Shown here piece by piece: positions 5,432-23,718 of a stretch of 24,000 bases of DNA (the first letter of the stretch is position 1; each line of letters starts with the position of its first letter). This stretch comes from an uncultured Photobacterium sp. (GTDB taxonomy: Bacteria > Pseudomonadota > Gammaproteobacteria > Enterobacterales > Vibrionaceae). The translations under genes and the position numbers were made by a program. Below the pieces are notes generated by a model. The model did no database searches. It saw only the letters and a program-made list of their open reading frames with translations, and was not told the DNA's origin. Where the stretch lies: the NCBI RefSeq assembly GCF_947502415.1, contig NZ_CANMZV010000016.1, forward strand, positions 37,687 through 61,686, given 5' to 3'.

Positions 5432-6328
5432 ATGACAACTCAATACATCAGCAAAGAAGGGGCCGCAATAATTAATATTGCGCGGTATTTAATGACAACT
5501 TCAGTCAATGACCGACTGAGGACCATAGACTCTTTATCTGAAGATATTGGAGTTTCCGTCGGCTTTATTCAAAAAGCATTAAGCACGATAGAAAAACAAG
5601 GCGCTGTCGTATTATCCAAACAGGGCAGGAATGGCACTTTCATTTCTAAACTGGATTATCAGGCTCTGGTTAAGCTTGCCGGTTTTTTCCATGTTGTATG
5701 CGCTATGCCCCTCCCCTACACCAAGCATTATGAGGGCCTTGCCAGCGGACTAAAAAAACAAATTGGAGATTTGCCGCTGTATTTTGCCCACATGCGCGGC
5801 GCAGATGTGCGGGCGGAATGCCTAAAAGCCGGCACTTATGATATTGCCATTATGTCCAAACTGGCGGCGCAAACCTACTCTGACAGCTTTGTTACAGCCA
5901 TAGACCTTGGCAGAAACTCCTATTCGCATGAGCACAGACTTATTTACCGAAGTGGCGAATACGACACAATCAAAAAAGTTGGTGTCGACCAGGATTCACC
6001 AGACCAAAAAATACTCACTCAACTTGTGTTTGAGCATAAGCCAGTAGAAATCGTCGAAATCAATTACGCAGACAGCCTTACACACCTATTACATGGTGAA
6101 ATCGATGCTGTTGTCTGGCTACCTGAAGCTATCGATATGGAAAAATACGGCCTGACGGAACAACCGCTGGATCATATCAAGCAGTGTACCTTAGCCTCTG
6201 AAGCGGTAATGCTGGTCAGCGGGGAAGCGCCGCACATCAGCACGCTGCTCCGTAAGTTAATCAATATTCCTGAGTTACTCGACCACCAACAGCAAGTTGT
6301 CAGGGGCGACATTACCCCTAGCTACTAA
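5432..6328 (+). CDS. yhfZ: YhfZ-like transcriptional regulator (GntR-like wHTH N-terminus plus YhfZ-type C-terminal domain)
   Basis: The N-terminal wHTH (IDSLSEDIGVSVGFIQKALSTIEKQGAVVLSKQGRNGTFI) is followed by a ~220-aa domain. The size (298 aa), and its position at the head of a yhfY-php-yhfU-yhfT-yhfX-yhfW set, match E. coli YhfZ as I recall it. There is no obvious Shine-Dalgarno sequence. Confidence 0.7.
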   Translation: MTTQYISKEGAAIINIARYLMTTSVNDRLRTIDSLSEDIGVSVGFIQKALSTIEKQGAVVLSKQGRNGTFISKLDYQALVKLAGFFHVVCAMPLPYTKHYEGLASGLKKQIGDLPLYFAHMRGADVRAECLKAGTYDIAIMSKLAAQTYSDSFVTAIDLGRNSYSHEHRLIYRSGEYDTIKKVGVDQDSPDQKILTQLVFEHKPVEIVEINYADSLTHLLHGEIDAVVWLPEAIDMEKYGLTEQPLDHIKQCTLASEAVMLVSGEAPHISTLLRKLINIPELLDHQQQVVRGDITPSY

Positions 6329-6349
6329 TTCATACAACAGGAGTGCGCA

Positions 6350-6727
6350 ATGAAGGATCGCCTAACCTTGTTACTACAAGCCAATGTAATCAGCCAGGAT
6401 GCTTATCAGGCTACCTCTTTGGCCGTAGAGCTTATTTCCCGCCATCTCAATGTTGATGAGAGTAATGAACAGTACCAAATGGCCATGACGCATTTGGCAA
6501 GGGCTTATGATCGTATCAAGTCTGGTGATCCTATTGCCGAAGGCTTAGACCCGGACATTTTCGATGAAATTATATCGGACGAGGGTTTTGAACAAATCAA
6601 CGCCCTGAATCAGGAAATACTTGATTCACTTAATATCAGCAATGTTCCGGAAACAGAAAACTCATTTTTACTGAGCAACCTCTTTTCACTGCACTGTGCA
6701 AGCCAAACCAAGGAGGCTGCATGTTGA
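6350..6727 (+). CDS. yhfY: YhfY-like stand-alone PRD-domain protein
   Basis: 125 aa. It has a PRD-like helix with a conserved His (MAMTHLARAYDRIKSG). AGGAG RBS is present. Its stop overlaps the php start (ATGTTGA). Confidence 0.65.
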   Translation: MKDRLTLLLQANVISQDAYQATSLAVELISRHLNVDESNEQYQMAMTHLARAYDRIKSGDPIAEGLDPDIFDEIISDEGFEQINALNQEILDSLNISNVPETENSFLLSNLFSLHCASQTKEAAC

Positions 6728-7599
6728 TTAATAATGCAGGCTATACCTACTGCCATGAGCACCTACATATCGATTTATCACCACAAAAAGGTGATATCGA
6801 CTGTCGTCTTGATCAATATGAACTGATCAAAGATGAAATGCGCGATCTTATTGATCATGGCGTTTATAACATTATCGAAGTAACAAATTCCTTTATGGGA
6901 AGAAATCCTCAATTTATTGAAAGTTTAATATTCGAAACAGGAATAAATGTACTCCTGTCGACCGGATATTACATTGATGGCTTCTTTCCACCTGAGCTTT
7001 ATTCCAAATCAGCCCAACAGATTAGTCAGGAGATGATTAGGGAAATCATTGTCGGCATTGATGGTAGCAACCTTAAAGCCAGTGTCATCGGCGAAATCGG
7101 CAGCAGCGAAAACACCTTCACCGAAACCGAAAAAACTGTCTTTGAAGCTGCGGCAATGGCTCACTACGAAACAGGCCGTCCAATCTCTACCCACCAGTCC
7201 ATGAGCACAATGGGGCGACAGCAAATCGAGTTGTTCAAAAACTTCGGTGTTGATATGGAAAAGGTGACTATCGGCCACTGTGACCTGAAAGATAACCTTG
7301 ATGAAATTCTCTGGTTACTTGACCAGGGCTGCCACATCCAATTCGACACTATCGGTAAAAACTCTTACTACCCGGATACCAAGCGCTTAGCAATGCTCAA
7401 AGCACTGTCCGAGCGCGGTTTACTCGATCGGGTGATGTTATCAATGGATATCACCCGTCGTTCGCACCTGAAACAAAATGGCGGACTGGGCTTTTGCTAC
7501 CTGATCGAAACCTTTGTACCGATGCTCAAAGAAATTGGCATCAGTCAGGTAGAAATCAACGCCATGTTAAAGCACAACCCCTACACACTTTTCCAATAA
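6721..7599 (+). CDS. php: Phosphotriesterase homology protein (amidohydrolase superfamily, cog1735)
   Basis: N-terminal metal-binding HxH motif (GYTYCHEHLHIDLS). 292 aa. TIM-barrel amidohydrolase pattern with later His/Asp ligands (GHCD, SMDI). Confidence 0.85.
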   Translation: MLINNAGYTYCHEHLHIDLSPQKGDIDCRLDQYELIKDEMRDLIDHGVYNIIEVTNSFMGRNPQFIESLIFETGINVLLSTGYYIDGFFPPELYSKSAQQISQEMIREIIVGIDGSNLKASVIGEIGSSENTFTETEKTVFEAAAMAHYETGRPISTHQSMSTMGRQQIELFKNFGVDMEKVTIGHCDLKDNLDEILWLLDQGCHIQFDTIGKNSYYPDTKRLAMLKALSERGLLDRVMLSMDITRRSHLKQNGGLGFCYLIETFVPMLKEIGISQVEINAMLKHNPYTLFQ

Positions 7600-7626
7600 A
7601 AATAAGTTAAACAGAAGGTTCCCGTT

Positions 7627-7986
7627 ATGAAAAAGATTGGTATTGCAGGACTACAACGCGAGCAAATCAAAGAACAAATTGATATGGCATCACCCGGCCA
7701 ATTTGAATGCCACATCCTCAATGACATGGATGCTGCAATGAAAGTGAAATCTGGCGAGCTTGATTACTACATCGGTTGTTGTAACACCGGCGCAGGCGCT
7801 GCGCTGTCCATCGCTATCGCTATTATTGGCTTCACCCAGAGCTGCACTATTGCCAAACCAGCAATAAAAGCCAAACAAGATGAAGTTCAACGCTTCATTG
7901 ACGAAGGCAAAGTAGCCTTCGGCTTATCCGTTGAACATATTGAACACGCAGTCCCCATGCTCGTCACTTCACTCGCTAATAAATAA
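7627..7986 (+). CDS. yhfU: YhfU-like protein (DUF2620 family)
   Basis: 119 aa with the motif MKKIGIAGLQREQIK...DYYIGCCNTGAGAALSIAIA. It sits between php and the yhfT-like membrane gene, as in E. coli. Confidence 0.7.
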   Translation: MKKIGIAGLQREQIKEQIDMASPGQFECHILNDMDAAMKVKSGELDYYIGCCNTGAGAALSIAIAIIGFTQSCTIAKPAIKAKQDEVQRFIDEGKVAFGLSVEHIEHAVPMLVTSLANK

Positions 7987-7995
7987 GGCTATCAC

Positions 7996-9297
7996 ATGGA
8001 CATAATGCAAATCGGCTTAGTTGCCACGCTCTGTGCCATGACGGCACTTATCGCCAACATGAGCGCTTCTGTCTTCCATGACGGGATACGCCCAATACTG
8101 CCACAGCTGGTCGAAGGAAACATGACACGACGCGATGCCGGTTCTGTGGCTTTCGGCTTGTCGATCGGCTTTGTTGCCTCTGTCGGGATATCTTTCACCT
8201 TGTCGACAGGACTGCTCAACCCCTGGCTGCTATTCCTTCCTACCGATATCATCGGAGTCATGCTCGGAAGCCGATTACTTGCGGCGATTGGAGGTGGTTT
8301 ATGGGGCGTTCTTGTCGTCACCTCACTCAGTGGTGTTAATGCCGTATTAACCGGGTTACCTATAGACGCTCTGGGTGCGCTGGGCGAGCTTGGTACACCA
8401 GTCATGACCGCTTTTGCCTTGTTCCCGCTACTGGCTATTTTCTACCAATTTGGCTGGAAAGCAGGAGCTCTAGCCAGTGCCGTCGTTCTGGTATCTCGGT
8501 TACTGATCATAAAATATACGGGCATCTATCCAGAATCTATCCAGATTTTTGTTGGTATGGTAATGCTTGTCGGAACCGCCATCCATAAAGACATCCAAAA
8601 CAAAAATAACGGGATCAATCCACCCGATATGTCCGGCATGCATAGCCTGTTTGAAGAGCGCACCAAGCGAATCATGAAGAACATGCCATTTCTGGCTGCA
8701 ACAGGTGCACTCATCGCAATCGTGGCCAATGCGGGTATTTTTGCCGGCTCAGAAGTCTCTATTTATTCTCTGGCTGACGCATACAAAATCGCCGACCCAA
8801 TTGAGCAAGATGCCGCAATCAAACAAGTCGCTCTTTCTGAATTCATGCGCGGCCTTGGCTTTGTGCCACTCATCGCCACAACAGCACTGGCTACCGGGGT
8901 ATACGGTGTCGTCGGTATGACCTTTGTGTTCGTCGTCGGCTACCTGGCGCCAAACATTCCCGTTGCAGCCTTGCTCGGCGCAATCACTATCTGCATTGAA
9001 ATTGTCCTGCTTCGTAAAATTGGCCACTTCCTGGAGCAATTCCCATCGATCCGCAACGCTTCGGATAACATTCGAAACTCAATGAATACCCTGATGGAGT
9101 TTGCATTACTGATTGGCGGAGTGCTGGCTGTAATGAAAATGGGATCAACAACCGGCCTGACCATCTTCACTGTTCTGTTCTTCCTTAACGAAGTCATGGG
9201 ACGCCCGATCCTCAAAATCGCAGCACCGGCGGTTGCCGCCATCCTAACCGGTATTGCACTGAATGTGCTGTACGTATTCGGTCTGTTCGCTATCTAG
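7996..9297 (+). CDS. yhfT: YhfT-like polytopic inner-membrane protein, putative transporter
   Basis: 433 aa, highly hydrophobic with roughly 10 or more predicted TM segments. Its size and context match YhfT. Confidence 0.75.
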   Translation: MDIMQIGLVATLCAMTALIANMSASVFHDGIRPILPQLVEGNMTRRDAGSVAFGLSIGFVASVGISFTLSTGLLNPWLLFLPTDIIGVMLGSRLLAAIGGGLWGVLVVTSLSGVNAVLTGLPIDALGALGELGTPVMTAFALFPLLAIFYQFGWKAGALASAVVLVSRLLIIKYTGIYPESIQIFVGMVMLVGTAIHKDIQNKNNGINPPDMSGMHSLFEERTKRIMKNMPFLAATGALIAIVANAGIFAGSEVSIYSLADAYKIADPIEQDAAIKQVALSEFMRGLGFVPLIATTALATGVYGVVGMTFVFVVGYLAPNIPVAALLGAITICIEIVLLRKIGHFLEQFPSIRNASDNIRNSMNTLMEFALLIGGVLAVMKMGSTTGLTIFTVLFFLNEVMGRPILKIAAPAVAAILTGIALNVLYVFGLFAI

Positions 9298-9308
9298 TTA
9301 ACGGGTAA

Positions 9309-9376
9309 AAGAGCCAGTCTGACTTCCCCTTCCACAATCATGGTGACGTAATGGTTACCCTTGTGGACTGGCTCTT
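9309..9376 (+). other. Structured intercistronic inverted repeat between the yhfT-like and yhfX-like genes
   Basis: AAGAGCCAGT (9309-9318) pairs with ACTGGCTCTT (9367-9376). An inner stem pairs CCACAA (9332-9337) with TTGTGG (9361-9366). The 5' side carries an asymmetric bulge of about 13 nt. No U-tract follows. Confidence 0.5.
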
Positions 9377-9399
9377 ATCGTCATTAAAAAGGTGCTTAT

Positions 9400-10578
9400 A
9401 TGTTTCTAAATACGTTAATACAACAAAATCCGGCACTGATTGACGGAGCCATTAAGCTGCTTGAAGATGGGTCGATCCTGCCCGATACCTATGTCATCGA
9501 TGTCGACCAGTTCAAAGAAAATGCCCGTTTAATAAAAGACAAAGCCGATAGTTATGGCATTCATCTCTATGGCATGACCAAACAATTTGGCCGAAATCCA
9601 ATGTTAGCAAAAATGCTTGTCGATGAACTGGGATACGATGGTATTGTCTGCGTCGATTTCAAAGAGGCCCGGCAACTTCACAAAGCCGGAGTGAAAATTG
9701 GCCACATAGGCCACTTAGTTCAACCTCCGAGTCGCTACATTCCTTTTATCGTTTCCGAGATCAAACCAGAAGTCATCACTGTTTATTCCATTGAAAAAGC
9801 ACGAGAGGTTTCAGCCGCTGCTCAACAGGCCAACCGAACCCAAGGCATACTGCTGAAGTTCTTCCGTTCCAGTGATCAGCTGTACCCTAACCAGGAAGCA
9901 GGCTTTCCCATCGAATCACTCGAAGGGGTCATTTCCCAAATTTCTGCCCTACCGAACCTTCATATTTCGGGACTGACCCATTTTCCCTGCTTCCTCTATA
10001 ACCCTAAAACACATAGTACTGAGCCAACACCGAATATCAAGACACTATACGCGGCTAAACAACAAGCTGACGAACTGGGTTACCGTTTCACTCAACTCAA
10101 TTCCCCTTCAGCAACCTGCTGCGAAACCATACCGAATATTAAGCACTTCTCCGGAACGCACGGTGAACCGGGTCATGCCCTGACCGGAACCATTCCTGCC
10201 AATCTGGATGGCAGTCAGCCGGAAAAGATCGCCATGCTGTATATCAGCGAAGTCTCGCACCATTTCGGGAGAAAAAGTTATTGCTACGGTGGCGGCTATT
10301 ACAGCCGAAGCCAATTAACCAGTGCACTAATCCGAGAACAAATACAGGCCGAAACCAAAGATACGATCGTCAATATCAGCAACGGGGATGAATCCAATAT
10401 CGACTATTACCTACAGTTCGATTCGCCCTGCGCTATTGGGACTCCTGTCGTCATGGCCTTTCGCACACAAGTTTTTGTTACACGAAGTGATGTTGCTCTT
10501 GTCGAGGGACTATCAAGCAATGCTCCGAAGCTGCTTGGTTTATTCGATGCACAAGGTAATGAGGTGATACATGGCTAA
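9400..10578 (+). CDS. yhfX: YhfX-like PLP-dependent enzyme (alanine-racemase N-terminal fold family)
   Basis: 392 aa. The N-terminal TIM-like region and C-terminal beta domain are arranged as in alanine racemase or ornithine decarboxylase fold type III. AAGGTG RBS is present. The gene overlaps the next gene by 8 nt. Confidence 0.65.
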   Translation: MFLNTLIQQNPALIDGAIKLLEDGSILPDTYVIDVDQFKENARLIKDKADSYGIHLYGMTKQFGRNPMLAKMLVDELGYDGIVCVDFKEARQLHKAGVKIGHIGHLVQPPSRYIPFIVSEIKPEVITVYSIEKAREVSAAAQQANRTQGILLKFFRSSDQLYPNQEAGFPIESLEGVISQISALPNLHISGLTHFPCFLYNPKTHSTEPTPNIKTLYAAKQQADELGYRFTQLNSPSATCCETIPNIKHFSGTHGEPGHALTGTIPANLDGSQPEKIAMLYISEVSHHFGRKSYCYGGGYYSRSQLTSALIREQIQAETKDTIVNISNGDESNIDYYLQFDSPCAIGTPVVMAFRTQVFVTRSDVALVEGLSSNAPKLLGLFDAQGNEVIHG

Positions 10579-11830
10579 ATTTATTGTCGTGGTATTAGAT
10601 GGTTTTGGCATTGGTGAAATGCCGGATGTTGCAACAGTCCGCCCACAAGATCTGGGCGCCAATACGGCAGGAAAACTACTGAATCATTTTCCGCTCAAAA
10701 GGCTCCCGACACTGGAAAAACTAGGGCTAATCAATATTGTCGGCGCAACTAACTCGGTGATGAACCTCGCTCCAGACGCAAACTGGGGAAAATCAAAGCT
10801 CGCTCACTACGGATGTGACACTTTCATGGGTCACCAGGAAATCATGGGCACACACCCCAAGCCGCCCATGATCAAACCGTTTCAGCAATCCATTGATGAT
10901 ATAGAAGAAGCGCTCAATCTAGCCGGCTATCAAGTTGAGCGAATCAGCCGGAAACAACTGCAATTACTGATGGTCAATGGCAGTGTTGTAATCGGTGATA
11001 ACCTTGAAGCCGATCTGGGTCAAGTCTATAACCTGACAGCGAATTTCGGCCAGATCAGTTTCGATGACGTCAAAAAAATCGGACAAGTAGTTCGTTCTGC
11101 CAATGCGGTAAGTCGCAATATCGCTTTTGGTGGATTCGTCCCGACAATACAGAACATCCTGAATGCCATAGAAACCAAAACCGATAAAAGTGGCAAGGAA
11201 TTGTATATCGGTGTCAATGCGCCCGATTCCGGTACTTACGACAATGGATTCCAGGTTGTCCACCTTGGCTATGGTGTCAATGCCAAAACCCAAGTGCCCT
11301 ATCAGCTGAATCAAGCAGGTATTCATACTTACCTCTACGGTAAAGTTGCCGATATTGTCCAGAACGACACCGGCACATCTTTTACCTCTGTCGTTGATAC
11401 CGATCGAGTTTTCGAACTGCTAATCAATGATCTGCACCAATACGATAAAGGTTTTTTCTGCGCCAATGTGCAGGAAACTGATCTCTCCGGCCACCAGCAG
11501 GATCCCAAGCGCTACTGGACAATTTTAGAAAAAGCAGATCGGGGATTAGCTTCGGTAATCGCTGAGATGGAGCAAGGGGATATGCTGGTTGTCATGGCCG
11601 ACCATGGTAATGACCCATTCATCGGCCATACCAAACATACCCGAGAACAAGTGCCGTTGATGGTCTATAGCCCCGGAGTAAAAGGCGTTCAGCTCGATAC
11701 CTGCGAAACGATGGCCGATATTGGTGCCAGCGTCGCAGCTTACTTTGGCGCCCCTTTCCCAGAATTCGGTTGTCCGGTGATAGCAACGAAAATCAAGAGG
11801 GCAACCCCCACACTCTCAGAAGCGTTCTAA
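10571..11830 (+). CDS. yhfW: YhfW-like phosphopentomutase-family metalloenzyme
   Basis: The N-terminus (KFIVVVLDGFGIGEMPD) and the ADHGNDP motif are typical of the DeoB/phosphopentomutase (alkaline phosphatase superfamily) group. 419 aa. Confidence 0.8.
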   Translation: MAKFIVVVLDGFGIGEMPDVATVRPQDLGANTAGKLLNHFPLKRLPTLEKLGLINIVGATNSVMNLAPDANWGKSKLAHYGCDTFMGHQEIMGTHPKPPMIKPFQQSIDDIEEALNLAGYQVERISRKQLQLLMVNGSVVIGDNLEADLGQVYNLTANFGQISFDDVKKIGQVVRSANAVSRNIAFGGFVPTIQNILNAIETKTDKSGKELYIGVNAPDSGTYDNGFQVVHLGYGVNAKTQVPYQLNQAGIHTYLYGKVADIVQNDTGTSFTSVVDTDRVFELLINDLHQYDKGFFCANVQETDLSGHQQDPKRYWTILEKADRGLASVIAEMEQGDMLVVMADHGNDPFIGHTKHTREQVPLMVYSPGVKGVQLDTCETMADIGASVAAYFGAPFPEFGCPVIATKIKRATPTLSEAF

Positions 11831-11936
11831 CAGCGTGACAAATTTAACGGGCGATCTGATTCATTTGCCTTTCGAATAACACGTAACACCAATAACAAAA
11901 AAACATTACCTACTGTATCCTACCAAGGAGATAAAA

Positions 11937-14120
11937 ATGACATTCAAGAAGACCATAACCGTGGCAATTGCGCTGGCTTTAGCTCCCGCAGCCTTTGCCT
12001 CAAACGGCGGTATGCAAGACTTTCTCGATAGTTTGAGAGACTTTGAATCAGGCATAAACCCGAGCCTGAGCACTTTCTACTACGACAACCTAGACAACCC
12101 CGTATTCACCTATGCCAAAGTTACAAAACCAGGTCGCTTAGTCCGGGATTGTGCTACCGGTATGATGATATCGGAGCCAACCACCATCAATCAGTTTTTC
12201 CAGAAACTCGGCATCGACGACATCTACAACCCTGCCACTCCACACAACCGCGACATGTTCCGTTCAATGCAATACAACTCAATGAATGCATGGGGCTTTG
12301 TCGGCTATCAGCTAGGTGAAGCCGTACTTATTGATGCCGGCTACTACAGCCCCAATACTGTGACCATCGACGGTAAAAAATATGACAGCTTCTACATGTT
12401 TGTTCCTGATTCCACATGGATAGGATGTAAAACCGAGGCGCTTTCAGAAATTCCAGGATCGGGCGGCAATCAGGTTTACGTCACTGATACAAACCGCTGG
12501 GAAGGTAAGTTTGTCGGTAAAAACGGCATAAATAACTTCAACGACTTGTTACTACCTGAAAAACAGGAACTAGTGATCCGGGATGCAATGCATTTCAACT
12601 ATAAGATCATTTCTAAATTGCTGTCAGATGCCAATATGACCTGGGAGCAAGCCCTTTCGAAAAGCTGGCCAGATAAAGATGACAACGGCCAACCAATTCA
12701 GGTACAGGCAACGATGTCAGGTATCCTGGCTGCAGCACACTTACGTGGAGCCTGGGGTACTGGCGCACTTCTGACCAAAGATAAAATTACCTGCGATGAA
12801 ATAGGAACTTGCATCACCAAGTATGTACATAAATTTGGTGACTACGATACCCTATTTGATGTACCGGGAGACAGCACTACTCACGGTTCCATCTATGATG
12901 AAGTACTTACTGCCGGTTGGGGCAATGACACCGTCATTACCGGCGGCGGCAACAACCAAATACTGCTAAACGAGCAAAACGGTTCGACAACAACCATTAC
13001 CGATTTTGTTCTTAACAAAGATCTAATCATTCTACGTGGATGGAAAGCGGCAGATCCGCTAGCATCCCTTACAGTGACTGATGCTAACGGCAACAGTGAA
13101 TTGCAGTTTGCCGGACAAACAGTGGTACTTAAAGGCGTTGCTGCTAAAGATGTACAGGCAAACCCATCAGCTGTTATCGAAAAGTCAGATGTTTACACAC
13201 TGGCTTGGAACACCGGCAAGCAAGTCGTTGAAGGCTTCAACCCTGCAGTTGATAAAATTGAAGGTAGTGCAGGCATCGGCTTCAAACACCTTAAAGCCTA
13301 TGAAACAGAAAGATCTGTCATCATTGGTCCACAGGCAGAAGATGGCGGAATTTATGCCTCTTATGAGCTAGTAGGACTAACATTGGCAGATCTTACACCA
13401 GAGATGTTTGTTAACATCACCGGTGGGTACGACCGCCTTGGTTACATTGTTCCACTTAACCACATTAACTGGGGTTGGAACATGATGCTGACTGTCAAAA
13501 CTTTTGACGTCAAAAAAACTGTCCTCACAGTACCAAGCAATCAACCAGTTCCATTCTCAGCCCTCAAACTGACCCAAGAAGGCGCCAATGTCGTTATTAC
13601 GCTGCTAGAACCCTATGCCAAAGGTGATAAGAAGAAGATTGTTCTCCATAACACTGATGTCAAACTACTTAGTGCAGCTAATTTCTCGGGCTTCTCAGGT
13701 AACTACAGTGAAGCCACAACCGACATTTCTGTAATGTTCGATATTAGCGTATCTGTTGATGGTTCTGGTGGTACGATTTCTCCAGTTCCTGGCGTTGATG
13801 GGGTTTTGCAGGCTAAAGGTGGCTCAGACTTCGTCATCAACTTTATCCCTGATGCTGGATATAAAGTGAAATCAATTGTTGTTGACGGTATTACTTATCC
13901 GGCAGCAAACTCCTACACCTTCTCTGCGGTAAAAGGCAACCACCAACTGAGTGTAAGCTTCGAACAAGGATCATCCTGCCCGGCCCTTTGGGATAGTAAT
14001 GCCGTATATGTCGGTGGAGATCGCGTAACATACGAGGGGAGAATATACCAAGCAAGCTGGTGGACTAAAGGGAATAAACCTGACTTAGGAGGCCCTTGGA
14101 AACCTGTTGGCAATTGTTAA
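11937..14120 (+). CDS. Secreted multidomain protein: unassigned N-terminal ~300 aa, RTX-like Gly/Asp segment, InlB-B-repeat-like domain, C-terminal CBM5/12 chitin-binding module
   Basis: Sec signal peptide (MTFKKTITVAIALALAPAAFA|SNG). GWGNDTVITGGGNNQILL resembles Ca-binding RTX nonapeptides. GGTISPVPG...GYKVKSIVVDGITY...SVSFE fits the divergent InlB B-repeat pattern. The C-terminal WDSNAVYVGGDRVTYEGRIYQASWWTKGNKPDLGGPWKPVG is a classic CBM5/12 pattern. Strong AAGGAG RBS. Confidence 0.8.
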   Translation: MTFKKTITVAIALALAPAAFASNGGMQDFLDSLRDFESGINPSLSTFYYDNLDNPVFTYAKVTKPGRLVRDCATGMMISEPTTINQFFQKLGIDDIYNPATPHNRDMFRSMQYNSMNAWGFVGYQLGEAVLIDAGYYSPNTVTIDGKKYDSFYMFVPDSTWIGCKTEALSEIPGSGGNQVYVTDTNRWEGKFVGKNGINNFNDLLLPEKQELVIRDAMHFNYKIISKLLSDANMTWEQALSKSWPDKDDNGQPIQVQATMSGILAAAHLRGAWGTGALLTKDKITCDEIGTCITKYVHKFGDYDTLFDVPGDSTTHGSIYDEVLTAGWGNDTVITGGGNNQILLNEQNGSTTTITDFVLNKDLIILRGWKAADPLASLTVTDANGNSELQFAGQTVVLKGVAAKDVQANPSAVIEKSDVYTLAWNTGKQVVEGFNPAVDKIEGSAGIGFKHLKAYETERSVIIGPQAEDGGIYASYELVGLTLADLTPEMFVNITGGYDRLGYIVPLNHINWGWNMMLTVKTFDVKKTVLTVPSNQPVPFSALKLTQEGANVVITLLEPYAKGDKKKIVLHNTDVKLLSAANFSGFSGNYSEATTDISVMFDISVSVDGSGGTISPVPGVDGVLQAKGGSDFVINFIPDAGYKVKSIVVDGITYPAANSYTFSAVKGNHQLSVSFEQGSSCPALWDSNAVYVGGDRVTYEGRIYQASWWTKGNKPDLGGPWKPVGNC

Positions 14121-14150: not shown

Positions 14151-14182
14151 ATGGTCGCGATATTTTGTCGCGACCATTTTTT
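14151..14182 (+). terminator. Rho-independent terminator
   Basis: A perfect 10-bp stem, ATGGTCGCGA (14151-14160) with TCGCGACCAT (14168-14177), followed by TTTTTT. Confidence 0.85.
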
Positions 14183-14334
14183 GTTAGTCCAGACTAAAGG
14201 AAAAAAATAAAAACAAACCTCATAAACAACATAAAAGTTCATTCTAGATTAAGGTGCAAATATTACACCACCTAACAAATGTAATACTTACAAACATATC
14301 AAAACAAGTGGAATTTAATTCACAAAAACATATA

Positions 14335-14392: not shown

Positions 14393-14445
14393 AATTAATA
14401 TTCATATGTACCCTAACCTATTAAAGAAATACAAGGATGACCACT

Positions 14446-14757
14446 ATGAATATATTCCTATGCTGCTCCGCAGGCATGTCTACCAGTATGCTGGTAAAAA
14501 AAATGCAAGATGCAGCCAAGAGCCAAGGTATCGAATGTTCTATTAACGCTTATTCTATTTCTGAGTTTGAACCAGCCCTTGCTGAAAATGATGTCTGCCT
14601 GGTTGCCCCTCAGGTTAAATTCCAATATGAACAGTTTAAATCCAGAGCAGAAGAAAAAGGCAAAGCATGCGGACTTATTGAAATGATGGATTACGGCATG
14701 ATGAAAGGTGACGTCATTCTTAAGCAAGCTGTAGAACTCTACAACTCAATAAAGTAA
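14446..14757 (+). CDS. PTS lactose/cellobiose-family EIIB component
   Basis: MNIFLCCSAGMSTSMLVKKMQ contains the phospho-Cys loop typical of ChbB/CelA-type IIB. The ORF track starts at 14437. I prefer the ATG at 14446 because AAGGA lies 8 nt upstream of it. Confidence 0.9.
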   Translation: MNIFLCCSAGMSTSMLVKKMQDAAKSQGIECSINAYSISEFEPALAENDVCLVAPQVKFQYEQFKSRAEEKGKACGLIEMMDYGMMKGDVILKQAVELYNSIK

Positions 14758-14767
14758 GGAATACATA

Positions 14768-16093
14768 ATGAGTATCTTTAATAAGGTCATGCAGTTTGTG
14801 GAAGCTGTTGTCGCCCCCATGGCGGCAAAGGTTTCCTGCCAGCGCCATATTAATGCAATCAAAGATGGTTTCGTCGCCACAATGCCATTTTTGATTGTCG
14901 GCTCCCTGTTACTTGTTTTAGCCTTCCCACCGGGAGAAGGAAACTTCTTCCTCGACGGCTGGCACTCTTTAGTAGACAAGATCGGCCAGCAAAACATCCT
15001 CGCATCTTTCCAGATCAGCATGGGTATCTTTGCTGTCTATGCCGCTTTCAGTATCGGCTATAACCTCGCAGAATCATATGGTCTTCGCTCCCTGAACTCC
15101 GGCCTGTTATCCTTGTTCACCTTCCTGCTGGCAGTTGCTCCGGTGCAGTTCATTGATGATATCGGTGGCATTATGCCAATCGCTAACATGGGCGGTACCG
15201 GTGCGTTTACCGCCATTCTTACAGGCTTATTAGTGCCTGAACTACAGCGGTTCTTACGAGACAAAAACATTCGCCTGAAAATGCCAGATGCCGTACCACC
15301 AAAAATTTCAGCGTCATTTGACCTGCTCATTCCGGTTGTGATTGTTTGTATTGTCGTTGTTTCGATTAATGCCATGCTATCAAACTATGATCTGAACATC
15401 CCAACCGCCATTATGGAGATCTTCAAACCACTAGTTTCAGCCTCTGACTCGTTCTTTGCCTGTCTGCTGGCAGTTATCATGATTCAGCTACTGTGGTTCG
15501 GTGGTATTCACGGTTCATCCGTTGTTGTTACCGGGATATTGTATCCGGTTTTAATTATCAACCTTGGACTAAACCAGGAAGCATTGGCAGCAGGTCAGGA
15601 ACTGCCTAAAATATTCGTAAACCCAATTCTGGATTTCTTTATTTTCGTTGGTGGTGCTGGTGGCACATGGGGTTTTGTTGTATTGATGATGCGTTCTAAA
15701 TCAACTCACCTTCGTACTATCGGTAAAATGTCGATTATTCCAAGTACATTTAACATTAATGAACCAGTTATTTTCGGCACCCCAATTGTAATGAACCCTA
15801 ACTATTTCATTCCTTGGATGCTATCGCCAATGATTAATACCTGTATCGTTTGGGCAGCATTTAAAACGGAAATAATTTCAAAAATTATTGCCTTACCTCC
15901 CTGGACAATGCCTGCGCCTATCGGTGCTGTAATTGCAACAAATTCAAGTACAGCCGCATTTGTTGTTGTCCTCTGTGTTCTTGTCAGTGTCATTATTTAT
16001 TATCCGTTCTTCAAGATTCACGAAAAGCAACTTCTTGAAGAAGAAAAAGCGACTGAAGAACAGGAAATGGAATTAAAACCATCTAAGGCCTAA
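14768..16093 (+). CDS. PTS lactose/cellobiose-family EIIC permease
   Basis: 441 aa polytopic protein with ChbC/CelB-like motifs (INAIKDGF, LLWFGGIHG, INEPVIFGTPIVMNP, PWTMPAPIG). Confidence 0.9.
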   Translation: MSIFNKVMQFVEAVVAPMAAKVSCQRHINAIKDGFVATMPFLIVGSLLLVLAFPPGEGNFFLDGWHSLVDKIGQQNILASFQISMGIFAVYAAFSIGYNLAESYGLRSLNSGLLSLFTFLLAVAPVQFIDDIGGIMPIANMGGTGAFTAILTGLLVPELQRFLRDKNIRLKMPDAVPPKISASFDLLIPVVIVCIVVVSINAMLSNYDLNIPTAIMEIFKPLVSASDSFFACLLAVIMIQLLWFGGIHGSSVVVTGILYPVLIINLGLNQEALAAGQELPKIFVNPILDFFIFVGGAGGTWGFVVLMMRSKSTHLRTIGKMSIIPSTFNINEPVIFGTPIVMNPNYFIPWMLSPMINTCIVWAAFKTEIISKIIALPPWTMPAPIGAVIATNSSTAAFVVVLCVLVSVIIYYPFFKIHEKQLLEEEKATEEQEMELKPSKA

Positions 16094-16095
16094 TC

Positions 16096-16467
16096 ATGAC
16101 ATTTGAAATTAACAAGCAAGAAGATATCACCGAAGAATTTTTGATGACGCTGCTCTGTAAAGTTGGAGAAGCACGAGCATCATTAATGAATGCCATTTCT
16201 TTAGCTAAAAAAGGTGACTTTGCCCAGTCTGAAGAAATGATTGCCATTGCAGATGATGCTCTGGCCGATGTCCACCGGACACAGACAGGACTTATTGGCT
16301 TTGATGAAGGAGAAGGAAAAGTCACTATGACTTTAATCCTGACCCATATTCAGGACCACATAATGACGACCATGCTATGTCGTGATTTGGCAACAGAAAT
16401 CATTGCGATCCACTCGATTATCGCTAACAAAGAGGAATTGTCAGAAAATGAAAAAGCGTATATTTGA
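16096..16467 (+). CDS. PTS lactose/cellobiose-family EIIA component
   Basis: 123 aa helical protein with the ChbA-like pattern (GEARASLMNAI..AKKGDF..AE..I..A...L..VHRTQT...LTHIQDHIMTT), including the conserved His region. Confidence 0.85.
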   Translation: MTFEINKQEDITEEFLMTLLCKVGEARASLMNAISLAKKGDFAQSEEMIAIADDALADVHRTQTGLIGFDEGEGKVTMTLILTHIQDHIMTTMLCRDLATEIIAIHSIIANKEELSENEKAYI

Positions 16468-17338
16468 TTTAACACGCCACGATATCGCCAATATGAGTCG
16501 TACCGATATTGTCGATTGCATCCGTCGCTCTGAAGGGCGTTCCATGATGGTTGAAAATGTCACCTCTATGGCTCCGCCGGTTGACCTCGTCTCCGGAGCC
16601 GAAATTGCCGCCGCCTTTGGCGCTGACATGATCACCCTCAACTGCCTCGATCTAATGGAACCTCGCGCGGAAGTTAACGGTGCAGCAGATCATGGAAGCG
16701 CTGATCATTTCACCGTACAAGAACTCAAACAGCTTTCCGGACGCATGATCGGCTGTAACCTGGAGCCCGTGCCTCAAGGCTTCACCGATATCAATATCGG
16801 CCGTTCATTAACAAAAGAGACCGTTGAAAAGGCTGTTGAACTCGGCATGAACTACATCATGCTGACAGGTAACCCGGGAATGATGGTCTCGCAAGAAACA
16901 ATTCTTAATGCGATAGCACTCACCCGCGAAGTATCGAAAGACATCCTGATCATCGCCGGCAAAATGCACGGAGGCGGCGTAGGTAACGACTATAACCTGG
17001 AATTCATTCCTCAATTTGCAGAAGCTGGCGCTGACATCATGATGTTCCCGGCTCCTTACACGACTCCAGGAATGAACCCGGCGCTAGCCTCAACGGTCAT
17101 GGATGCAGTCCATGAAGCCGGTATGCTGGGTATGCTTGCCATTGGAACCTCACAAGAGGGCGCTTCAGAAAGTTATATCGAAAAGGTCACCATTGAATCT
17201 AAAGGCGCGGGAGCTGATATCGTTCACATTGGCGATGGCGGCTACGGTGGCATTGCTGTTCCGGAAAATATCATGCGAATGGGCATCACACTACGTGGCA
17301 GACGCCACCAGTTCAAACGCATGGCTAACCATCGCTAA
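16448..17338 (+). CDS. Uncharacterised 296-aa protein, probable alpha/beta (TIM-barrel-like) enzyme, fourth gene of the PTS operon
   Basis: Start chosen at the ATG at 16448 (MKKRIFDL...), which overlaps the IIA stop by 20 nt. The ORF-track extension from 16382 would run through the IIA coding sequence. Alternating beta/alpha pattern with Gly-rich loops (LTGNPG, IIAGKMHGGG, GADIVHIGDGGYGG). I recognise no family with confidence. Confidence 0.7.
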   Translation: MKKRIFDLTRHDIANMSRTDIVDCIRRSEGRSMMVENVTSMAPPVDLVSGAEIAAAFGADMITLNCLDLMEPRAEVNGAADHGSADHFTVQELKQLSGRMIGCNLEPVPQGFTDINIGRSLTKETVEKAVELGMNYIMLTGNPGMMVSQETILNAIALTREVSKDILIIAGKMHGGGVGNDYNLEFIPQFAEAGADIMMFPAPYTTPGMNPALASTVMDAVHEAGMLGMLAIGTSQEGASESYIEKVTIESKGAGADIVHIGDGGYGGIAVPENIMRMGITLRGRRHQFKRMANHR

Positions 17339-18459: not shown

Positions 18460-19230
18460 TTACTGTGTCAGCTCCTCATCAACCCAATATTTCGAACCGG
18501 AAATGTTGGCATCAAGCAGTAGACCTTTCTCACCAATCTGATAAATCGCCATACCACCATTGTACTTAGCTGCCAGCTCTGCACTGTCTGTTCCGGCGAC
18601 AACCCCCGCTTCTGACGTAGCTTCCCAGCCATCTGTCACGAAACTGTCGAAGGTTTTCTTATCTTCGAAAAAGATCAACTGCTGGTAAAACTTGCCGCCA
18701 ATTCCGAGCGCTAAGCCAGCACCAAACATTTTCATGTATGTTCGCTTATCGGTCTTCCGATTGACCGCTACCCCCGCCCCTTGGTTGGTGTGAAGCATTA
18801 AAGAAAACTTACGGGAATCAAACACGGCATAACCATAAGCACTATCAAATAACAACTTGGCTGACGGCTGTTCGTTAAACAAACGTACCAATGCCGTATC
18901 AGACATAGTATCTAACGCCAAACGAGCCTCTTCCGGGGTTTCAGGCTCCAGCATTTCATCAAGCTTTGCTTCACCGGCTTCAAGCCATTCTTCACCTTTT
19001 TCTATCGATGCATCGGTCCACTCACCAGCGGTATTAAATGCATCCTCTCCCCACTCTGAAACAGAATCCCAGGTCTCTTTGGAAAAGTCAGTAACATCCT
19101 GCCAGGCTTTTTTCGAACCTTCACTGACCTGTTGACCAAGATCCGACGCCGCTTCCTTAAATTCCTCCCAACTGGCATGAGCCGGAGTCACAGCAAGGCA
19201 TAATACAGCAACAATTACCTTCAACTTCAC
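18460..19230 (-). CDS. Secreted protein with a Trp/acidic repeat N-terminal region and a SYLF/DUF500 (Ysc84-like) C-terminal domain
   Basis: GTG start with GGAGGG 6 nt upstream. Signal peptide MKLKVIVAVLCLAVTPAHA|SW. The C-terminal ~140 aa (AYGYAVFDS..GAGVAVNR...GAGLALGIGGKFYQQLIFFED...W.ATSEAGVVAG) follows the SYLF lipid-binding domain pattern. This assignment is from pattern memory only. Confidence 0.6.
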   Translation of the reverse strand: MKLKVIVAVLCLAVTPAHASWEEFKEAASDLGQQVSEGSKKAWQDVTDFSKETWDSVSEWGEDAFNTAGEWTDASIEKGEEWLEAGEAKLDEMLEPETPEEARLALDTMSDTALVRLFNEQPSAKLLFDSAYGYAVFDSRKFSLMLHTNQGAGVAVNRKTDKRTYMKMFGAGLALGIGGKFYQQLIFFEDKKTFDSFVTDGWEATSEAGVVAGTDSAELAAKYNGGMAIYQIGEKGLLLDANISGSKYWVDEELTQ

Positions 19231-19246
19231 GGGTTACCCTCCATAC

Positions 19247-19276
19247 AAAACTGGCAACTAATTAGTTGCCAGTTTT
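19247..19276 (-). terminator. Perfect 30-nt palindrome acting as the intrinsic terminator downstream of mog
   Basis: AAAACTGGCAACTAATTAGTTGCCAGTTTT. The GC-containing stem is flanked by an A-run and a T-run, so it could function in both directions. Confidence 0.75.
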
Positions 19277-19295
19277 CAATCCAATATTTCGTCTT

Positions 19296-19829
19296 CTATT
19301 TCTTCTTCGGACGGAAAGGCTTCATAACCTCTTCATTACACTCAAGGTATGGACCTTCCATCAGGTCGATACAATAAGGTATAGCAGGAAAAACCGCATC
19401 CAGACATTCGCGAATAGATTTCGGCTTACCCGGCAGGTTAACAATCAGGCTGTCACCGCGCAGGCCTGCTGTCTGGCGAGACAAAATCGCCGTCGGGACA
19501 AATTTCAGTGACTCTGCACGCATCAACTCGCCAAAACCTGGCATCATGCGATCGCAAACCGCTTCGGTAGCCTCAGGCGTCACATCACGTTTAGCTGGGC
19601 CTGTACCGCCGGTTGTTACGATCAGGCTACAATCTTGCTCATCCGCCATTTTGATCAGTGTCGCTTCGATAATATCCTGCTCATCAGGGATCACTTCATA
19701 AACAGGCTCCCATTCTGATGTCAGGTAATCATTCAGTGTTTCAATAATCGCCTTACCAGAAATATCATCGTACACGCCTGCACTTGCGCGGTCACTGACC
19801 GTTACAATACCGATTTTTGCTTTTGTCAT
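19296..19829 (-). CDS. mog: Molybdopterin adenylyltransferase (MogA)
   Basis: KIGIVTVSDRASAGVYDDISG...TTGGTGPAKRDVTPEAT...MPGFGELMR...PTAILSRQ...NLPGKPKSIRE aligns closely with E. coli MogA. Confidence 0.9.
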   Translation of the reverse strand: MTKAKIGIVTVSDRASAGVYDDISGKAIIETLNDYLTSEWEPVYEVIPDEQDIIEATLIKMADEQDCSLIVTTGGTGPAKRDVTPEATEAVCDRMMPGFGELMRAESLKFVPTAILSRQTAGLRGDSLIVNLPGKPKSIRECLDAVFPAIPYCIDLMEGPYLECNEEVMKPFRPKKK

Positions 19830-20001
19830 TAATTATCCCTCAGGCTTTAACCTTGCTTGTTTTCATTATTACTGACTGGCTAGCAACCGCCAACCAGCTA
19901 TTCAATCAAATTGAATGCAAGTTTAAGGAATAACAGAAGCGGGATAAACCTTAAAGTGAAAAAACGTGGCAAACGTGGTAGTTAATCCTAATCTACAGCT
20001 A

Positions 20002-20035
20002 GAAAAAAGCCCCGCTTAAACGAGCAGGGCTTTTA
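20002..20035 (-). terminator. Intrinsic terminator at the end of the APE-type cluster
   Basis: Stem AGCCCCGCT (20008-20016) pairs with AGCAGGGCT (20023-20031) with one mismatch. It is flanked by AAAAAA and TTTT, so the minus-strand reading has a 6-T tract. Confidence 0.7.
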
Positions 20036-20059
20036 ATTGAAAAGGCATTAAACAGGTAA

Positions 20060-21292
20060 TTAACCCTGCCAGCGCTTGAAGATTAGTGATGTATTAATGC
20101 CACCAAACGCAAAGTTATTGCTCATGATGTACTGACAATCAATCTCACGTCCTTCACCACGGATATAATCCAGGTTTCCACAACGATCATCAATATTGTC
20201 CAGGTTCAACGTTGGACTAAACCAACCCGTATGCATCATTTCCAGGCTAAGCCAAGCTTCGATCGCACCACATGCACCAAGCGTATGTCCTAAGTAGCTC
20301 TTAAGGGAACTGATTGGCGCATTATCACCAAAGATATTGGCTGTCGCATTACTTTCAGCAATATCGCCTTTTTCAGTTGCCGTACCGTGAGCTGAAATGT
20401 AATCAATCGCTAGCGGAGAAAGATCTGCGTCTTTCAGCGCCATTTCCATACACAGCTGCATGGTTTCCATCTGAGGCTGAGTAACATGTGCAGCATCGCA
20501 GTTACTTGCAAAACCAACAAGCTCAGCATAAATTTTCGCACCACGAGCCACTGCATGCTCATATTCTTCAAGAACCAGCGTACCGGCACCTTCTCCGATC
20601 ACCAAACCATCACGTTCAGTGTCATACGGGCGCGGTGTCGACTTCGGCGCATCATTTTTCAAACTTGTCGCGAAAAGGGTATCGAATACTGCCGATTCAG
20701 TCGGGCACAACTCTTCAGCACCACCAGCAACCATCACTGTCTGGTAACCATGCTTGATTGCCTCATAGGCGTAACCAATCGCCTGGCTGCCCGAAGTACA
20801 AGCACTGCTCGTCGGGATGACTCGACCACGCAGGCCAAAAAACAAGCCAACATTTACTGCTGTTGTATGCGGCATCATCTGAACATAAGTTGTAGCCGTA
20901 ATTGCCTTGGTGTCTTTTTCATTCAGCATCACACCGAACGCACCAATCGCTGGCGTACTGCCAGTAGATGAACCATAAGCGATGCCTGTCTGACCATTGG
21001 TCAGAACCTCATTACCGATAAGCCCACTTTGAATCAAGGCATTTTCACTAGCCAGTGTTGATAGCTTAGAAACACGTCCCATACCGCGCACTTTCTTGCG
21101 GGTATAGTGAGCCGGCAGTGTGAAGTTATCGATTGGCGCGGCCAGCTTGGTATTCAGCCCATTATATTGCTCATAACTCGGCATATATTGTGATGCATTT
21201 TCGCAAGCACGCAGCTTCGGCTCAATGCTCTGCCAATCGTTACCCAAAGCAGTAACCCCGGACATACCGGTAACAACTACGCGACGACTCAT
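20060..21292 (-). CDS. Beta-ketoacyl-ACP synthase (FabB/F-like), ApeR-type position in an aryl-polyene cluster
   Basis: The Cys-His-His triad is intact (SSACTSGSQ, SAHGTATEKGD, YLGHTLGACG). The start overlaps the upstream KR stop (ATGA). Confidence 0.85.
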   Translation of the reverse strand: MSRRVVVTGMSGVTALGNDWQSIEPKLRACENASQYMPSYEQYNGLNTKLAAPIDNFTLPAHYTRKKVRGMGRVSKLSTLASENALIQSGLIGNEVLTNGQTGIAYGSSTGSTPAIGAFGVMLNEKDTKAITATTYVQMMPHTTAVNVGLFFGLRGRVIPTSSACTSGSQAIGYAYEAIKHGYQTVMVAGGAEELCPTESAVFDTLFATSLKNDAPKSTPRPYDTERDGLVIGEGAGTLVLEEYEHAVARGAKIYAELVGFASNCDAAHVTQPQMETMQLCMEMALKDADLSPLAIDYISAHGTATEKGDIAESNATANIFGDNAPISSLKSYLGHTLGACGAIEAWLSLEMMHTGWFSPTLNLDNIDDRCGNLDYIRGEGREIDCQYIMSNNFAFGGINTSLIFKRWQG

Positions 21293-22014
21293 ACCAAACC
21301 TCCGTTCACCGAAATCACCTGACGAGTTACATAACCCGCAATATCTGACATTAAATAACTCACCAAGCCTGCAACTTCTTCCGGTTCGCCCATACGGCGC
21401 AGCGGCACCTGCGGCAGCGCATGCTCTTTAACGTGCTCATCAACCATACCGGTATCAATCAGGCCCGGTGCCACACAGTTTACGGTGATCTTACGTTTAG
21501 CCAGCTCCAATGCCAATGACTTGGTCGCACCAATCACACCGGCTTTCGCTGCACTGTAATTAGTCTGGCCCCGGTTGCCCATGATCCCCGATACAGAAGC
21601 TAAGGTAACAATACGGCCACCTTTACGCAGCTTCACCATCGGCATTACACATGGGTGAAAAACATTATAAAAACTATCTAAGTTGGTATGAATTACCCCA
21701 TCCCACTCTTCTTCGGTCATGGCCGGAAAAGCAGTATCACGAGTAATTCCCGCATTGCTCACCACGCCGTAATACGCACCGTGCTCAGCGATATCTGCCT
21801 CAAGGCGCTCGCGGCATTGTGCGCGGTCACTAATATCAAATTGGATCAGGCGTCCGGTACCACCGGCTTTTTCAATTTCTGCCAGTGTTAATTCGGCACC
21901 GGCTTTATCACTCATATAATGAACAATAATTGCAAACCCATCTTTTGCGAGTTGAGTAGCGACAGCGCGTCCGATGCCTTTACTCGCCCCTGTAACTAAA
22001 ACCTGTCGAATCAT
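21289..22014 (-). CDS. 3-oxoacyl-ACP reductase (SDR, FabG-like), ApeQ-type position
   Basis: TGASKGIGRA cofactor motif and the YSAAK catalytic motif. ATGA overlaps at both ends. Confidence 0.9.
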   Translation of the reverse strand: MIRQVLVTGASKGIGRAVATQLAKDGFAIIVHYMSDKAGAELTLAEIEKAGGTGRLIQFDISDRAQCRERLEADIAEHGAYYGVVSNAGITRDTAFPAMTEEEWDGVIHTNLDSFYNVFHPCVMPMVKLRKGGRIVTLASVSGIMGNRGQTNYSAAKAGVIGATKSLALELAKRKITVNCVAPGLIDTGMVDEHVKEHALPQVPLRRMGEPEEVAGLVSYLMSDIAGYVTRQVISVNGGLV

Positions 22015-23700: not shown

Positions 23701-23718
23701 CGCGATTCTTCGCACTTT

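Follow-up and report, generated by a model that had tools for sequence, protein, structure and literature searches.

A secreted chitin-binding Photobacterium protein with a putative lysozyme-superfamily domain, encoded beside candidate uptake cassettes

Much of the flux of carbon and nitrogen in the sea passes through chitin, and the enzymes of its turnover (GH18, GH19, GH20 and AA10) are regarded as well mapped. A 24,000-nucleotide stretch of DNA from an uncultured Photobacterium sp. (contig NZ_CANMZV010000016.1, positions 37,687 to 61,686; hereafter the window) contains the gene examined here. An open reading frame (ORF) with an ATG start at 11937..14120 encodes a secreted modular protein of 727 amino acids (aa), here called protein X, and lies directly downstream of a yhf-like gene cassette. 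The locus raises the question of what the N-terminal part of X does to the polymer bound by its C-terminus, and whether the genes next to it handle what is released. The reading that we lean towards is that X is a chitin-targeted, glycan-cleaving enzyme of the lysozyme superfamily that would feed a dedicated uptake pathway and be co-transcribed with yhf in this genome. Positions are those of the window and features lie on the + strand unless otherwise stated.

That the ORF is real and its product secreted, as a preliminary description of this DNA had claimed, was borne out. The coding sequence is present in the ORF list, in 56 full-length orthologues and in 71 species loci. A Shine-Dalgarno sequence, AAGGAG, was read directly at 11925..11930, 6 nt 5' of the ATG, and the N-terminus, MTFKKTITVAIALALAPAAFA followed by SNGG, was read as a Sec signal peptide that covers aa 1-21 (11937..11999), with predicted cleavage between AFA and SN. 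The orthologue in Andreprevotia ripae is listed as SignalP-positive in the table of a 2021 proteomics paper on that species and was present in the secretome. At the opposite end of the protein, aa 679-727 (13971..14117) form a CBM5/12 chitin-binding module, again as previously described, with a Cys681-Cys727 pair. PF02839 matched aa 685-722 with an E-value of 9.2e-11 (42 bits against a Pfam gathering cutoff of 26.2), and the carbohydrate-binding modules of chitinases in the PDB matched the C-terminus of X with E 1.3e-8 to 1e-5. The aromatic residues of the module and its terminal Cys pair align with 4txg and 2d49, and W685, Y691, Y704, W708, W709, W721, C681 and C727 are invariant across 16 orthologues. 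This is the sole module of X that scored above a curated family threshold. We propose that X, once exported through Sec, would be held on chitin by CBM5/12 as an extracellular enzyme.

The candidate catalytic part is the N-terminal domain (aa 22-305; 12000..12851), characterized with an AlphaFold2 (AF2) model, PHROG 27932 and Foldseek searches of BFVD. The preliminary description had presumed this domain to be catalytic whilst leaving it unassigned, and both statements fared well: a catalytic role is likely on the predictions given below, and aa 22-305 had no match in Pfam, NCBIfam or PDB sequences, nor did a 32-sequence family profile match PDB chains at E<=10. The 56 full-length orthologues share 51-89% identity and belong to Photobacterium, Vibrio, Aeromonas, Pseudoalteromonas, Thalassotalea, Microbulbifer, Lacimicrobium, Andreprevotia and Iodobacter. 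Among 1.84 billion cluster representatives, a profile search recovered 2,032 relatives of the domain, many of them stand-alone proteins of ~290 aa. Short stand-alone members were seen in the filamentous fungus Peziza echinospora (KAI5799200.1; P0145) and the cyanobacterium Oscillatoria princeps (MBW4494588.1; P0253). The family links free secreted enzymes, phage tail lysins, alphaproteobacterial RTX-type proteins, LysM fusions and a fungus.

Across 102 homologues E37-S38-G39 is invariant, and F36/E37/S38/G39, N117, G123-Y124-Q125-x-G127-E128, W188, H268-L269, D287-E288, T291 and Y296 are invariant or nearly so. The Glu37-Ser38 pair, whose codons lie at 12045..12050, is also at least 90% conserved among 80 distant members. 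These data bear on the possibility that the domain has no catalytic activity and is there to bind or disrupt, for example by loosening the chitin surface or as a Ca/CaCO3-associated accessory, and that it does no more than assist chitinases and lytic polysaccharide monooxygenases. The authors of the A. ripae study did propose a Ca-binding accessory role, and databases annotate X only as 'carbohydrate-binding protein'. We nonetheless consider this role very unlikely because of the conservation pattern: that of Glu37, Ser38, Tyr124, Gln125, Glu128, His268, Asp287 and Glu288 is typical of an active site, and the Glu, Tyr-Gln, His and Asp positions persist in two phage domains that occupy an enzyme slot.

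Structure prediction followed by Foldseek, a check proposed in the preliminary description, yielded confident models. The predicted local distance difference test score (pLDDT) was 94.9 for the 291-aa N-terminal domain of X and 95.0 for a compact, 224-aa alphaproteobacterial member of the family. DSSP assigned the first helix to residues 5-17 in domain numbering, so that it ends at E16/S17, which are Glu37-Ser38 of X; the most conserved block, G-Y-Q-x-G-E, was predicted as short strands. In the lysozyme superfamily (GH19/22/23/24/46 core), the catalytic Glu sits in a helix and a conserved Gly/Gln beta-hairpin faces the cleft (PMC2976769). A Glu-bearing helix and strands at N117..G123-Y124-Q125-x-G127-E128 are seen in the secondary structure of our model, the pattern in PMC2976769 being also a spatial one. 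By analogy with this superfamily, Glu37 would be the general acid and the invariant G-Y-Q-x-G-E segment a substrate-facing beta-hairpin. This placement yields a hypothesis on catalysis, naming Glu37, for an orphan that is abundant in the chitin secretome.

Searching the PDB with the 291-aa model returned noise only (E>=2, TM-score ~0.1). The domain of X carries large beta-rich insertions at aa 57-82 and 140-183, and these probably mask the core of the full model in Foldseek, since the compact homologue gave a signal. In BFVD the compact member matched predicted viral structures with E 9e-7 to 3e-5 and a probability of 1.0; the named matches were gp5/Vgr-type 'baseplate hub + tail lysozyme' proteins and one 'peptidoglycan-binding' phage protein. 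SLT-domain proteins in BFVD matched less well, with E 0.2-0.8 (TMt 0.43 and probability 0.69 at E 0.2). Sequence comparison led to the same phage proteins. PHROG 27932, 'baseplate hub subunit and tail lysozyme', matched the domain of X over 34 aa (E 3e-5), the compact member (E 4.8e-9) and a further homologue, P0186 (E 3.3e-13), the last at profile positions 356-487, which correspond to the central domain. By tblastn, the domain was found in 40 phage records with E 1e-19 to 1e-4. In Agrobacterium phage Atu_ph04 (ASV44619.1) it occupies ~357-481 of an 853-aa hub protein, with a weak gp5 C-terminal/VgrG-like region after the lysin-like domain; T4 gp5 carries its lysozyme in this central slot. 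In Tenacibaculum phages the domain occurs in proteins annotated LysM.

Two further phage proteins differ in setting or label. In Escherichia phage PJNS034 the domain forms the C-terminal end of WWV91972.1, a hypothetical protein of 1,610 aa, and for the matching protein of Pseudoalteromonas phage pYD6-A (NC_020849.1) RefSeq gives 'virion RNA polymerase' and GenBank hypothetical.

The compact phage domains read, in order, QRESGGKY, N.LGYVGKYQFG, W.GK.G, AHLLG and D..GT, and align motif by motif with X; RESGG or RESSG stands at the Glu37-Ser38 position. With (R/F)ESGG, N..G(F/Y)xGKYQFG, W.GK.G, AHL.G and D..GT in common, the gp5-type hub domains of PHROG 27932 are true sequence homologues of the domain of X. 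They differ in being compact (a matched core of ~125-150 aa), in lacking the insertions and disulfides, and in being embedded in virion proteins that, on infection, attack the host wall from outside, whereas X is a free secreted protein with CBM5/12. Both compact phage domains also had a sub-threshold match to PF06737 'Transglycosylas' (Rpf-type) at RESGG, with 16-19 bits against a threshold of 27. Rpf/IsaA-type domains share with the family of X a catalytic motif of the ESGG type and, after it, a G-x-Y-Q-F-type segment, but X itself had no PF06737 match and the domain of its family is about three times longer.

The preliminary description had heard in the Glu-Ser pair a loose echo of lysozyme-like folds. 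This hunch proved well founded, given the remote homology to phage tail lysins, the weak structural similarity to SLT proteins and the invariant Glu-Ser at a helix end. Its more specific suggestions, GH23 and the ENS of GH46 chitosanases, did not survive. GH23/SLT membership was ruled out by the lack of a profile match and by TM-scores below 0.5, even though Glu-Ser at the helix end is present: PF01464 matched neither the domain of X, nor 79 short members, nor the phage homologues at E<=10. GH46 found no support: no GH46 entry appeared among the Pfam, PDB-sequence or Foldseek results. In a Pfam scan of 80 short members at E<=10, no weak SLT, GH19 or GH46 match recurred, and two of the 80 carried a LysM fusion. 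GH23/SLT enzymes and goose-type lysozymes still provided the closest, though weak, PDB structural matches to the family, and have in common with it the Glu-Ser at the C-terminal end of a helix, a Gly/Gln-rich hairpin segment and a mostly helical lobe. They differ in that TM-scores (0.27-0.43) are below the same-fold level and no Pfam SLT match occurs in 80+ members, in the beta-rich insertions and two extra predicted disulfides of X, and in a GH23 signature without the invariant His268, Asp287 and Glu288. We conclude that the N-terminal domain probably represents a distinct, undescribed family in the lysozyme-like superfamily; beyond its CBM, X is outside every described family. A precedent for such an arrangement is the GH23 chitinase of Ralstonia sp. 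A-471, which reportedly combines a lysozyme-fold catalytic domain with a chitin-binding module and acts on chitin.

Evidence on the substrate came from A. ripae, whose orthologue IGB42_04172 is 51% identical to X over the first 611 residues. In the 2021 proteomics paper it was among the most abundant secreted proteins on chitin: from day 3 on alpha-chitin its log2 label-free quantification (LFQ) intensity was 27-30, except for one replicate at 18.7, and the values on glucose or N-acetylglucosamine (GlcNAc) were 14-24.6 (supplementary table). In the same data IGB42_04176, annotated 'D-allose-binding periplasmic protein', was detected on chitin from day 3, with values of 24-25, and hardly ever in the other samples. 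Gene order in the A. ripae locus (L068) identifies IGB42_04176 as the binding protein of an ATP-binding cassette (ABC) transporter cassette immediately upstream of IGB42_04172. In our literature search only this 2021 paper covered X or IGB42_04172, with no later characterization found, and papers on chitin growth of Pseudoalteromonas rubra, Jeongeupia, Aeromonas and Microbulbifer did not mention the protein in their main text.

The genomic neighbourhoods of X were surveyed using one genome per species, giving 71 loci whose flanks were searched with reference proteins. The species are mostly from genera that include known chitin degraders. Almost everywhere, the gene for X comes last, after one of two cassettes for uptake and catabolism. 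In 50 of the 71 loci, from most lineages, a Peripla_BP_4 binding protein, a permease, an ATPase and a GH3 protein are encoded directly upstream; this is the commonest partner of X and the only one in the deeper-branching groups. A TonB-dependent receptor gene often lies between the cassette and X, a ROK (NagC/Mlc-like) or GerE-type regulator adjoins, and in Microbulbifer HZ11 a GH20 chitobiase gene separates the cassette from X. Five of the GH3 proteins were examined; all have the NagZ motif KHFPGHGxxxxD[ST]H and lack a signal peptide, and are therefore cytoplasmic N-acetylglucosaminidases. The second context, a full yhfZ-PRD-php-yhfU-yhfT-yhfX-yhfW cassette, was found in 13 loci, 12 times directly upstream and once divergent. 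These loci belong to nine Photobacterium species, Aeromonas sobria, Vibrio maritimus, Vibrio sp. ES.051 and, in the divergent case, Thaumasiovibrio; P. gaetbulicola and Photobacterium sp. J15 share the yhf context with the window. The remaining eight loci were uninformative, owing to contig ends, an insertion sequence (IS) transposase in A. media DSM 4881 and distant PKD-type variants. Both contexts occur within each of Photobacterium, Vibrio and Aeromonas. A neighbour-joining bootstrap recovered three solid yhf-context groups (100, 73 and 100%) and a single origin of all of them in just 4% of replicates. Repeated switching between contexts was not established by this analysis, as the mutual order of the yhf groups lacks support.

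Some individual loci depart from these arrangements. In A. media DSM 4881 a DDE transposase gene lies directly upstream of X (L028 8694-9710), at the place where A. media FiBL-01 (L076) has the ABC/GH3 cassette, and the neighbourhood of DSM 4881 has apparently been disrupted by an IS element. In Vibrio sp. ES.051 only residues 49-132 of X were matched behind a complete yhf cassette (L085 10001-10252), possibly a decayed remnant.

The mutually exclusive neighbours (ABC with NagZ-type GH3, or yhf) suggest a dedicated route for a non-canonical product. We suggest that X cleaves the beta-1,4 linkages of chitin, or of chitin that is partly modified, and would release small products that contain GlcNAc. 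The product, a GlcNAc-capped saccharide outside the canonical chitobiose route, would be imported and processed by the adjacent system. In most lineages this would be done by the CUT2-type ABC transporter and the cytoplasmic NagZ-type GH3, and in the source Photobacterium, some other Vibrionaceae and Aeromonas by the yhf cassette, often with a lactose/cellobiose-type phosphotransferase system (PTS) and DUF7916. The proposed pathway is functionally analogous to AmpG-NagZ muropeptide recycling, in which a small GlcNAc-capped product is likewise imported and a cytoplasmic NagZ-type GH3 removes the GlcNAc; it differs in its CUT2 ABC transporter with a periplasmic binding protein, in being chitin-induced and in having no AnmK, AmpD or MurQ. 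A second comparison is with the ong cluster of Pseudoalteromonas prydzensis, which serves oxidised chito-oligosaccharides through an SSS transporter, the periplasmic GH20 OngA, the D-aminoacylase OngB, the deaminase OngC and a MurR/RpiR regulator (PMC9537276). There too, a dedicated outer-membrane receptor, an inner-membrane transporter and enzymes serve a non-canonical chitin product apart from the chitobiose pathway, but other gene families are involved and no homologue of X is described (PMC9537276). Identity of the X-adjacent cassette with the published ong cluster was rejected on these differing gene families.

The same neighbours could be read otherwise, with X as a peptidoglycan-degrading enzyme parked on chitin particles by CBM5/12, where it would lyse competitors or scavenge muropeptides. 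The NagZ-type GH3 would then cleave GlcNAc-MurNAc-type products (MurNAc, N-acetylmuramic acid), and the racemase-like YhfX and amidohydrolase-type Php would handle peptide or MurNAc. Every annotated relative of the domain is either a virion-associated domain that digests cell walls or a LysM fusion, and the classic enzyme of muropeptide recycling is a cytoplasmic GH3 of the NagZ type. A homologue of X without the CBM, moreover, adjoins genes for an Opp-type transporter, dihydrodipicolinate synthase (DHDPS)-family proteins, a YhfX-like protein and an M20 peptidase. Set against this are the occurrence of the CBM5/12 clade in chitin-degrading genera and the induction of the A. ripae orthologue and its neighbouring binding protein by chitin rather than glucose or GlcNAc. 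One cluster contains a GH20 chitobiase, whilst MurQ, AnmK and amidase genes were not seen in the cassettes, and without help the wall of Gram-negative neighbours is out of reach for a secreted muramidase. We regard this explanation, the main rival, as unlikely.

The CBM-less homologue comes from a metagenome contig (L009 8001-17926); it is 641 aa long and has no signal peptide either. Its locus encodes orthologues of the ABC cassette, namely a pair of paralogous binding proteins (47-53% identical to their orthologues), two permeases and a ROK regulator, and ends in the YhfX-like gene, whose product is 34% identical to YhfX of the window, and the M20 peptidase gene. Upstream of it are the genes for the Opp-type peptide transporter and two genes of the DHDPS family.

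In the window, the cassette upstream of X (5432..11830) was confirmed with Pfam and NCBIfam to comprise yhfZ, a PRD-domain gene, php, yhfU, yhfT, yhfX and yhfW, as the preliminary description had recognized. Its YhfX matches PDB entry 4KBX, 'uncharacterized protein YhfX', with E 1e-121, and a literature search returned no functional report on yhfX, yhfW, yhfT or the yhf operon. X is on the same strand as yhf and separated from the yhfW-like gene by 106 nt (11831..11936). On the + strand of this gap we found neither a terminator-like nor a sigma-70-like promoter consensus, in agreement with the earlier statement that it holds no convincing hairpin. The strong terminator noted earlier downstream of X was also located (14151..14184); its 12-bp stem, with 6 G-C pairs, and its T-run lie at 14151-14177. 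These features indicate that X is probably co-transcribed with the yhf cassette in the source Photobacterium. The mutually exclusive neighbours of X also open, for the first time, a way to approach the substrate of the yhf operon by experiment.

A possible though less probable alternative is that the adjacency to yhf is incidental, with X transcribed independently from its own promoter and the yhf pathway functionally unrelated. The 106-nt gap could accommodate a promoter and is poorly conserved against two other Photobacterium species apart from the ribosome-binding site, AAGGAG being the sole conserved block across the three. Another upstream partner is present in 50 of the 71 loci, and E. 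coli has yhf but is not known to have a gene for X. On the other hand, the promoter consensus is missing from the gap in the window, and in eight other species the yhfW-X gaps are terminator-free and only 0-76 nt long; strong terminators intervene where X follows a TonB receptor gene. The adjacency extends to four genera, in one case in divergent orientation, and the orthologous ABC cassette next to the CBM-less homologue has gained a gene for a YhfX-like protein. Independent transcription is possible even if the functional link is real. The link to yhf proposed in the preliminary description was upheld in that it recurs (13 of 71 loci), and qualified in that the ABC/GH3 cassette is the commoner neighbour.

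Several observations weigh against a chitin-cleaving enzyme that feeds these cassettes. Catalysis by the N-terminal family is something that we infer from sequence, and the phage label 'tail lysozyme' is an annotation by position. The compact member had no PDB match below E 0.6; the best TM-scores among these non-significant matches were to the lytic transglycosylases Cj0843 and phiKZ gp144, at only 0.27-0.29 by query length and E 0.9-2. The phage homologues act on peptidoglycan rather than chitin, and the case for a chitin substrate therefore comes from the CBM, the proteomics and the neighbouring genes. Monosaccharides are the usual cargo of CUT2 transporters. Co-transcription with yhf is deduced only from spacing and the absence of a terminator, and since no glycosidase can be recognised in the yhf cassette, it is not obvious that the two neighbouring cassettes are equivalent. 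A narrower version of the chitin-cleaving reading would have X act by lytic-transglycosylase chemistry instead of hydrolysis, giving 1,6-anhydro-GlcNAc-ended oligosaccharides that the ABC/NagZ-type GH3 or yhf cassettes handle, the GH3 presumably splitting them as it does GlcNAc-anhMurNAc. We hold this to be a long shot; if true, it would define a new class of chitin-acting enzyme and the physiological substrate of the yhf operon.

Variation within the N-terminal family suggests a history of changing export routes. In the 102 homologues the Cys pairs 72/164 and 286/292 co-vary, being always present or absent together, and are restricted to the clade with signal peptides, a pattern that fits disulfides made during Sec/periplasmic export. 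The clade without signal peptides is presumed to be exported by type I secretion instead, which would explain its lack of the disulfide Cys residues. Alphaproteobacterial homologues (P0069-P0112; Ruegeria, Devosia) are proteins of 600-1,050 aa in which the domain starts at residue 2; they have no signal peptide and no Cys at the disulfide positions, and some have recognisable RTX repeats. These patterns suggest that export has changed between the type I and Sec routes inside one family. The alphaproteobacterial RTX-type homologues (in Ruegeria and a metagenome-assembled genome, MAG) had no conserved sugar-catabolic neighbours and are therefore silent on the substrate.

The part of X between the N-terminal domain and CBM5/12 is less well defined. 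An RTX-like segment had been reported, and as a family assignment this failed: PF00353 matched aa 317-342 below threshold (E 0.053, 13.9 bits against 23), in one degenerate stretch only. A degenerate, beta-roll-like Ca-binding segment at aa 304-409 (12846..13163) is nevertheless supported by an NCBIfam match to the C-terminal beta-roll part of the polyurethane esterase PueAB (E 9e-8), by precomputed PF00353 matches in 15 of the 56 full-length orthologues and by the InterPro assignment 'serralysin-like C-terminal' in the A. ripae orthologue. It may be a relic of a type I secretion history. The middle region that follows (aa 410-607; 13164..13757) is conserved, with W424 and W512-G513-W514 among the many residues invariant in 16 orthologues, but had no family match in Pfam, NCBIfam or PDB-sequence searches. 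Internal repeats were not detected in aa 305-612 (z-scores <0). The InlB B-repeat-like module reported at aa 608-677 (13758..13967) could not be sustained, as PF18998 scored below its family threshold (E 0.11, 12.9 bits against 23.6); this Ig-like region has a precomputed PF18998 match in one orthologue, and aa 646-721 had weak PDB sequence matches.

Downstream of X, the window encodes a lactose/cellobiose-family PTS (IIB-IIC-IIA) and a DUF7916 protein (14437..17338). This block recurs near the yhf cassette in several genera at varied positions and orientations (L008, L015, L017-L020, L040, L056 and L085), which suggests that it functionally belongs with yhf. DUF7916 had no PDB match by sequence. 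The GTG start listed for its ORF (16382-17338) gives an 86-nt overlap with the end of the PTS IIA gene. Since the homologue in Photobacterium sp. J15 is called with a length of 296 aa, the ORF probably begins near 16450. In Photobacterium frigidiphilum, P. sagamiensis, P. lipolyticum and a MAG (L017-L020), the best tblastn match for at least one of YhfZ, Php and YhfU lies ~5-6 kb downstream of X (~16.6-18.4 kb), beyond a reversed PTS-DUF7916 block, which suggests second copies of these genes. Further along the window, 18460-23715 on the minus strand contains fatty-acid/polyketide-type genes (beta-ketoacyl synthase, short-chain dehydrogenase/reductase-type ketoreductase). This block looks like an aryl-polyene-type cluster, apparently unrelated to X, and the syntenic region of J15 adds ApeP-like and ApeI-like matches.

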